Source: Enterobacteria phage mEp043 c-1. From it: DNA of 42,780 nt. Where the stretch lies: the sequence record NC_019706.1. The stretch is one strand, 5' to 3'. Positions 31,730 through 32,044 of this stretch are shown one piece after another. A program made the translations under genes and the position numbers. How positions within the stretch are numbered: the stretch's first letter is position 1; every line of letters starts with the position of its first letter. The notes below the pieces were generated by a model. That model was given only the letters and a program-made list of their open reading frames with translations. It made no database searches and was not told where the DNA came from.

Positions 31730-32044
31730 TCAGAAGCTATTTGGATTGCTTGGCCATTGCGGCAATTTTGATTCTACTAGGGTGTGTTTGGGTTTGAGTC
31801 CGTTTAAGTAGTCAAGACGCTCAATGGCGCATTTATACATAGCAATCTGCTCTGATGACATGTCGTCGTATGACATGCCTTTGAACTTTTTAATTATCGA
31901 TTCTGCCTCATGTATAAGATGCTTCTTCTTCATGAGTTCAGCTGTATGCTTAGAGCTTACAGGAGATAACTTTGCCCATATGAAGCAGATGATTACAACA
32001 GCGACTACTATGCCGGGTATAAACACTTGCTGCTTTATCCTCAA
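31730..32044 (-). CDS. Small membrane protein co-transcribed with cI (rex-position moron)
   Basis: 104-aa ORF overlapping the cI stop; non-ATG start (TTG at 32044 or GTG at 32026); N-terminal TM helix (VFIPGIVVAVVIICFIWA); AT-rich. Confidence 0.45.
   Translation of the reverse strand: MRIKQQVFIPGIVVAVVIICFIWAKLSPVSSKHTAELMKKKHLIHEAESIIKKFKGMSYDDMSSEQIAMYKCAIERLDYLNGLKPKHTLVESKLPQWPSNPNSF

Follow-up and report, generated by a model that had tools for sequence, protein, structure and literature searches.

A candidate superinfection exclusion gene of the PHROG 10450 family in the repressor operon of phage mEp043

Few phage genes are expressed in every lysogen. Prophage genes that share the repressor transcript belong to them, and rexAB, stk, bstA and hex all proved to be defence or stability functions. 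These genes occupy the interval between cI and N, a mosaic hotspot in which they are carried on the repressor transcript (PMC8585504, PMC3564112). Enterobacteria phage mEp043 has a single small gene at this place. What does it encode, and could it be an exclusion function? We analysed the window, a stretch of 42,780 nucleotides (record NC_019706.1), to which all coordinates refer unless another locus is named.

The phage, a lambda-like siphovirus, encodes a gpA terminase, a lambda-type tape measure and a J tail tip. Over 31400-33200 the window matches Escherichia phage mEp043 PV340537.1 at 100% identity, and no other sequenced phage does so beyond the nutL/pL flank. The first-pass annotation, made from the sequence alone, had placed a 104-aa gene starting at TTG at 31730..32044 on the minus strand. 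An ORF with these limits is indeed present as a mechanical ORF, and PV340537.1 annotates a hypothetical protein with identical coordinates. We found nothing on this gene in the literature on mEp043 or on record PV340537.

Many mechanical ORFs of similar size lie nearby, and the length of this one alone is within chance; we judged the gene real because of its conservation. The frame is intact in every copy examined, comparison with the two copies that diverge most gives a dN/dS of 0.17-0.25 in it, and codon position 3 accounts for 8 of the 14 variable sites. Protein homologs at 28-42% identity occur in other phages in unrelated genomic contexts, and 12 residues are invariant (S24, K34, I38, E40, A41, M56, Q60, C66, A67, L71, W91 and P92). 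A spurious origin, as a part of the cI 3′ untranslated region that is open by chance ahead of the terminator, could be argued from the similar-length chance ORFs nearby, the GTG start with its weak Shine-Dalgarno spacing and the missing PGAP annotation in the RefSeq genomes inspected, but it is effectively excluded by this family conservation, by the frame intact in all copies at a dN/dS of about 0.2 and by the strong Shine-Dalgarno sequences of the paralogous lineage. We also rejected as a real gene the antisense ORF at 31824-32093 (+), which runs into cI; the distant homologs conserve the minus-strand protein.

The start codon of the first-pass annotation did not hold. The PHROG 10450 profile aligns over its full length (1-98 of 98) to residues 7-104 of the ORF (E=9.7e-54), and close homologs in a collection of 5.8 billion proteins are all called as 98 aa. 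The extension up to TTG is absent from all members of the PHROG 10450 family. Distant full-length members (97-114 aa) all begin M-[F/Y/W]-I-[P/S] at the residue encoded by GTG 32026, and this codon is ATG in 3/4 diverged E. coli prophage copies. In L007, a sister cI-linked lineage, an in-frame stop lies 18 nt upstream of the GTG, so that an N-terminal extension is impossible there. On the N-terminal alignment of the family, the ATG/GTG polymorphism and the L007 stop we rejected TTG 32044 as the start. From these comparisons the mEp043 gene almost certainly starts at GTG 32026 and encodes 98 aa. The overlap with the cI stop that had been reported is thus replaced by a 14-nt gap, whereas the reported non-ATG start stands, with GTG in place of TTG.

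The GAGGA Shine-Dalgarno sequence overlaps the cI stop codon (32043-32041; Table 1). GAGGA is also present in L007, 9 nt upstream of its GTG, and P22-type members carry AAGGAG, GGAGG or GGGAGG 5-8 nt upstream of their starts. The 11-nt spacing and the GTG start suggest that translation of the mEp043 gene is low. The same two traits probably account for an annotation gap: PGAP leaves the mEp043-type gene uncalled in every RefSeq E. coli genome inspected, where only the S24 peptidase is listed. The gene, which lies at 31730-32026 (-) in the window, is at 2541-2837 in loci L003-L006 and is also present in L022.

Table 1. Features of the cI operon and its pL-side boundary in the window.
Feature	Position	Strand	Basis or detail
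CDS of the 98-aa PHROG 10450 protein	31730..32026	-	GTG 32026-32024 (almost certain start), stop TGA 31732-31730
In-frame extension upstream to TTG, probably untranslated	32027..32044	-	outside the PHROG profile
Shine-Dalgarno sequence GAGGA	32038..32042	-	11 nt upstream of GTG; read from sequence
Codons of the predicted TM helix, about residues 1-19	31970..32026	-	hydropathy and AF2
Codons of the predicted cytoplasmic domain (helical hairpin and C-terminal tail)	31733..31969	-	AF2 with MSA
cI repressor, 228 aa, N-terminal DNA-binding region and Peptidase_S24	32041..32727	-	PF00717 E=1.4e-17, phrog_4; annotated cI
Candidate pRM-like promoter TTTACC-16-TAGAAT	32734..32761	-	consensus match only
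Intrinsic terminator closing the cI-ORF operon	31692..31718	-	stem 31718-31702, then T-run
pL with OL1/OL2 operator repeats	31592..31634	-	promoter hexamers and repeats

The family to which the gene belongs is PHROG 10450; ORF14 of phage N7 matches the same profile at 3.2e-52. Its members share the M-[F/Y/W]-I start, an N-terminal TM helix and the motifs LI-EA, SW-(D/E)M, Y-CA-RL and WP, and full-length members span 97-114 aa. The family is rare: a set of 1.84 billion proteins yielded 11 representatives and one of 5.8 billion yielded 26 clusters, and every source labels its proteins hypothetical. The organisms named by these sources are exclusively Enterobacteriaceae (E. coli, Shigella, Salmonella and E. 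fergusonii). Only three of 50,697 phage records carry the gene (mEp043, N7 and HZ41), and a scan of viral contigs for the family returned no match. The mEp043-type gene is found in 52 of 5426 complete E. coli genomes, a count equalled by the mEp043-type cI (52/5426); the N7-type gene is found in 57 genomes and is annotated there as a hypothetical protein. About 1% of complete E. coli genomes carry each of the two sub-lineages searched.

The gene was described in the first-pass annotation as lying in the rex position and as followed by its own terminator. Both statements were confirmed: it is the single small gene between cI and the pL-proximal terminator, a strong intrinsic terminator is found on the minus strand, and pL comes immediately after. 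The terminator stem is 7 bp with 6 GC and a loop of 3, followed by TTTTTATATC. Across the tail at 31661-31729 the four E. coli copies show a single substitution, which one of them carries at 31687, just beyond the T-run. The pL promoter consists of a -35 hexamer TAGACA (31620-31615) and a -10 hexamer TATATT (31597-31592), with the operator repeats OL1/OL2 at 31594-31609 and 31619-31634; N follows it in mEp043, and the same promoter hexamers are found after the ORF in L007. On the cI side, operator inverted repeats lie at 32747-32761 and 32786-32800. Since the 14-nt gap between cI and the ORF leaves no room for a separate promoter, cotranscription with cI is the sole reasonable reading of the sequence, and the gene would be transcribed in lysogens.

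The low GC content noted in the first pass is real relative to the genome (41.1% against 50.8%, in the bottom 5% of same-size windows) but not relative to cI (43.1%). The ORF and cI being so similar, low GC is a trait of the whole immunity cassette. A moron, in the Juhala/Hendrix sense, has its own promoter and terminator and a composition unlike that of its neighbours. Here the terminator is present, the promoter would be that of cI in place of one of its own, and the GC content is 41% against 51% for the genome and 43% for cI.

Several other features of this region were observed. The -10 of the predicted pRM (TAGAAT) ends 7 nt before the cI ATG (32727-32761), so that the cI mRNA would be leaderless, like that of lambda; the downstream ORF, in contrast, has its own Shine-Dalgarno sequence. 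A split inverted repeat, TTACCTG-N10-CAGGTAA, lies at 31653-31676 between the terminator and OL2 and resembles operator half-sites. Its L007 equivalent (4313-4336) has a terminator-like score and is the sole hairpin between the ORF and pL there. The repeat may represent OL3 or a second terminator, or may combine the two. An Rfam search of the interval gave no match that reached the gathering score. In the pL operon, 29122-30090 (-) encodes a 322-aa repeat protein, extremely rich in Glu/Lys/Ala/Arg and annotated 'TolA', whose homologue is frameshifted in E. coli PA45B (L006). In phage 434 (L018), 1175-2044 (-), just downstream of N, is annotated as a 'Nun C-terminal peptide-containing protein'; this Nun-type gene is another exclusion-type cargo beside an immunity region.

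What kind of protein would this operon deliver? The single N-terminal TM helix proposed in the first pass was recovered, with a Kyte-Doolittle value of 2.84 for residues 1-17 (98-aa numbering) and a helical segment in AF2. We checked the architecture on two family alignments (the 12 invariant columns) and on the hydropathy and charge of 17 members. In the mEp043 protein K/R are absent on the N side of the TM helix and number 5 within the 20 positions that follow it; across all 17 members the K/R counts are 0-2 ahead of the helix and 2-7 over the 20 positions behind it. Under the positive-inside rule such an asymmetry gives an N-out/C-in orientation with the soluble part in the cytoplasm, and we infer a bitopic inner-membrane topology.

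The AF2 model built on a 16-sequence alignment has a pLDDT of 77 overall and 85-89 over residues 31-70. It predicts a long helix that leaves the membrane and extends to about residue 48; after a turn come a helix at 58-76 and a less ordered C-terminal tail that carries the invariant WP motif. Judging from helix register in the model, I38/E40/A41 should lie opposite C66/A67/L71 in the hairpin. The predicted periplasmic part comprises no more than a few residues, so direct contact with a periplasmic conduit would be impossible.

In order to place this protein among known systems, we compared it with characterised families. No Pfam or NCBIfam family matched above noise and no PADLOC family matched at E<=10, RexA and RexB included, which agrees with the first-pass statement that the protein is not RexA/RexB-like. 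PADLOC and PHROG searches detected no similarity to BstA. A sequence profile search of the PDB returned only designed helical filaments (E about 0.3), and Foldseek of the AF2 models gave a best E of 3.5 against the PDB and of 0.36 against BFVD; a two-helix hairpin is too simple for a fold search to be informative. Profile comparison with hhalign gave probabilities of 0.68% for P22 SieA, 0.72% for HK97 gp15/YebO and 0.14% for 434 Hex. Thus PADLOC, hhalign (SieA, gp15, Hex) and Foldseek (PDB, BFVD) revealed no similarity to characterised exclusion or defence proteins, and on these sequence comparisons the PHROG 10450 protein belongs to none of the RexAB, SieA, gp15 and Hex families.

The genomic settings of relatives were the most telling result, and fall into two types of site. 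At the first, the gene lies directly behind cI, as in mEp043, four E. coli prophages and L007. The cI-cro cassette is constant in the four E. coli prophages, whereas the N and replication modules differ, and the order cI-ORF-pL is common to these prophages and L007. The small protein diverges much faster than its neighbour: between mEp043 and L007, cI is 84% identical and the small protein 35%, and 16 copies below 99% nucleotide identity were found for the ORF against 4 for cI. The cI+ORF cassette is found in lambda-like and also in P22-like prophages and is therefore not tied to one virion type. The P22-like case is a prophage of E. coli JNE131328 (L022, NZ_AP027212.1 841016-881386). The sieA slot of this prophage (L023 6612-7082 (-)) holds a lipoprotein-like pseudogene (MKKSLLIIPLLLVGC..., with an internal stop), a further case of envelope-protein cargo at the sieA locus.

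The second type of site is found in P22-like loci, of which we examined ten (L002, L008 and L010-L017), with L009 counted separately. In 10/10, the family member is immediately convergent with the ejection-protein gene 16. It lies downstream of mnt in L002, L010, L011 and L016/L017, following Mnt directly in L011; L008 and L012-L015 have no adjacent repressor. The P22 record has the same geometry, with sieA convergent with gene 16 and preceded on its own strand by orf59a and mnt. No SieA-like protein was found by motif, size or PHROG checks in the 11 loci (the ten and L009). In P22-like phages sieA lies between genes 16 and 9 and is present in only 22 of 66 (Leavitt et al. 2024, PMC10883804). 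The PHROG 10450 family thus occupies both classical lambdoid exclusion slots, each of which is transcribed in lysogens.

Two further observations were made at the P22-like loci. L009 (Logan SRR10692002 contig, 1547-5747) is a prophage remnant that kept the small gene: a 114-aa member lies beside decayed gp7/gp20 genes, no gene 16 is called, and the member also adjoins genes for Hcp and Tlde1 (a T6SS effector). In several loci a gene pair of unknown function lies between mnt and the PHROG 10450 member (L002 2008-2848; L010 2196-2886; L016 1530-2367). The first gene encodes a Cys-rich 115-121-aa protein (phrog_4293) in L002 and L010 and an unrelated 136-aa protein (phrog_5893) in L016. The product of the second (110-169 aa; phrog_24865, 6324 or 2990) is a coiled-coil protein that has a TM helix at its C-terminus, and its L010 copy has weak holin and hemolysin matches. 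The pair may be a separate two-gene cargo system.

By position, the mEp043 gene would be analogous to RexAB, Hex and BstA, and its P22-like relatives to SieA. Lambda RexA/RexB occupy the same slot, from cI to the terminator before pL, with the same pRM/pRE transcription logic (PMC8585504) that is predicted here. RexAB, however, is a two-protein system that pairs a cytoplasmic sensor with a polytopic membrane protein, whereas mEp043 would make one bitopic protein of 98 aa. In phage 434, the pRM transcript likewise carries one small ORF immediately behind cI, which encodes Hex (PMC3564112), with a start codon near the cI stop that is disputed, as it was here. Hex is longer (134 aa), has a signal-peptide-like N-terminus and is unrelated in sequence. 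It was originally defined by heterologous exclusion of P22, and its characterised activity is to shield the repressor from RecA-stimulated cleavage (PMC3564112).

P22 SieA, which keeps P22-like phages from injecting their DNA, and the mEp043 protein are both prophage-coded inner-membrane proteins, the latter by prediction. The locus of sieA, convergent with gene 16, downstream of mnt and between 16 and 9, is that of the relatives, and the conserved SieA motif is predicted to be cytoplasmic, as is the domain of the mEp043 protein. The proteins themselves differ: SieA (types A-C) is 162-164 aa long, and a SieA protein is expected to have about 160-200 aa, 3-4 TM helices and the motif FxRYPxEAxxFNK (PMC10883804); the mEp043 protein has 98 aa and one TM helix, with FxRYPxEAxxFNK absent on direct reading. 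The mEp043 gene also lies behind cI and not beside gene 16, in a siphovirus that lacks the gp7/20/16 ejection proteins.

Closest in predicted architecture, as a small N-terminally anchored inner-membrane protein, is HK97 gp15, a YebO-related moron product that is described as inserting into the inner membrane and preventing genome entry (Cumby et al. 2012, summarised in PMC3594210). Both proteins have, in mEp043 by prediction, a TM helix from about residue 3 without a basic N-flank, basic residues just after the helix and a short helical C-terminal part, and both genes are followed by their own terminator. gp15 is shorter (62 aa against 98 aa) and unrelated in sequence, and its gene lies in the tail operon under its own promoter whereas that of mEp043 is a cistron of the cI operon. 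Of the two, gp15 is the one for which exclusion has been demonstrated.

Our preferred reading is that the protein provides prophage-expressed superinfection exclusion. The 98-aa gene would close the two-cistron cI operon of mEp043. It would be transcribed from pRM in the lysogen and from pRE while lysogeny is being established, its translation would use the GAGGA Shine-Dalgarno sequence in front of it, and the intrinsic terminator (31718-31692) just before pL would end its transcript. Its product would be a bitopic inner-membrane protein whose TM helix begins at residue 1-3 and holds a basic helical-hairpin domain of roughly 75 residues at the cytoplasmic face (N-out/C-in). There it would stop incoming phage DNA from completing entry at the inner membrane, by binding on the cytoplasmic side to the injection conduit at its membrane-inserted end, or else to a membrane factor of the host on which the conduit depends, in a manner comparable to HK97 gp15 or P22 SieA.

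This candidate role is drawn from location and architecture. Placement of relatives in the sieA slot and fast divergence relative to cI give circumstantial support to an exclusion or abortive-infection function, as had been suggested in the first pass. We favoured a block to entry because of the operon anatomy, the membrane architecture, the placement at both hotspots, the absence of sieA at the loci that carry the family, and the fast divergence. Against it count the absence of homology to characterised exclusion or defence proteins in the searches above, the very small part of the protein predicted to reach the periplasm, and the presence of non-defence genes among the cargo of such hotspots. 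We put defence of any kind at even odds, and the entry block at the inner membrane at a probability of roughly 0.35. Rather doubtfully, PHROG 10450 might be an unrecognised anti-phage family, captured independently by the rex and sieA slots and acting through a block at the cytoplasmic face unlike those of RexAB, SieA and gp15.

The gene might instead alter the envelope or stress physiology of the host, aiding the lysogen without targeting phages. A small bitopic membrane protein with predicted expression alongside cI would suit such a role, morons with diverse non-defence roles are known (PMC3594210), and the family is spread over prophages of E. coli, Shigella, Salmonella and E. fergusonii. 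We consider this unlikely, however, since the family was found only in prophage or phage contexts among the loci inspected, its placement in the sieA slot beside the ejection operon in 10/10 P22-like loci would be hard to explain, and rapid divergence fits an arms race better.

Another reading is an abortive-infection effector, inert in the lysogen, that would sense an infecting phage, form oligomers by way of the TM helix and hairpin, and depolarise or permeabilise the inner membrane as a one-protein functional analogue of RexB. The rex-slot position (PMC8585504), a single TM helix with amphipathic helices and fast divergence would all agree with this, and the neighbours of P22-like members include small proteins with weak holin/hemolysin PHROG matches. 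Yet 98 aa contain no recognisable sensor domain, and similarity to RexB or to PADLOC Abi models is lacking. A constitutive pore-former made from the strongest lysogenic promoter would moreover be risky without a partner, and the gene is alone in mEp043. Such an effector therefore appears quite improbable.

The precedent of 434 Hex, located in the identical slot, indicates that a gene there can stabilise the prophage instead of defending it. The mEp043 protein could accordingly tune repressor stability or induction, either like Hex, which on the pRM mRNA blocks RecA-stimulated repressor cleavage (PMC3564112), or as a membrane-tethered regulator of FtsH/HflKC or of RecA access. The neighbouring repressor is cI in mEp043 and L007 and Mnt in L002, L010, L011 and L016, and the equal counts of cI and the ORF (52 each in 5426 genomes) are consistent with strict linkage. 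Against this, the protein is unrelated to Hex (hhalign 0.14%), copies in L008 and L012-L015 have no adjacent repressor, and the two repressors concerned, an S24 cI and an Arc-fold Mnt, are wholly different, which argues against a repressor-specific partner. Divergence far faster than that of cI points the same way, and we regard a role in prophage maintenance as having little likelihood. An entry block at the inner membrane remains the reading that we prefer.

Small prophage-expressed membrane accessory proteins at exclusion hotspots are a known category, within which this family itself is unstudied: PHROG 10450 is uncharacterised, its mEp043 lineage is unannotated in RefSeq, and it sits at two independent exclusion hotspots. 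Since mEp043 grows on E. coli K-12, the hypothesis is open to standard plating assays. A negative outcome would be a caution against deducing function from hotspot position. [quoted passage not shown]
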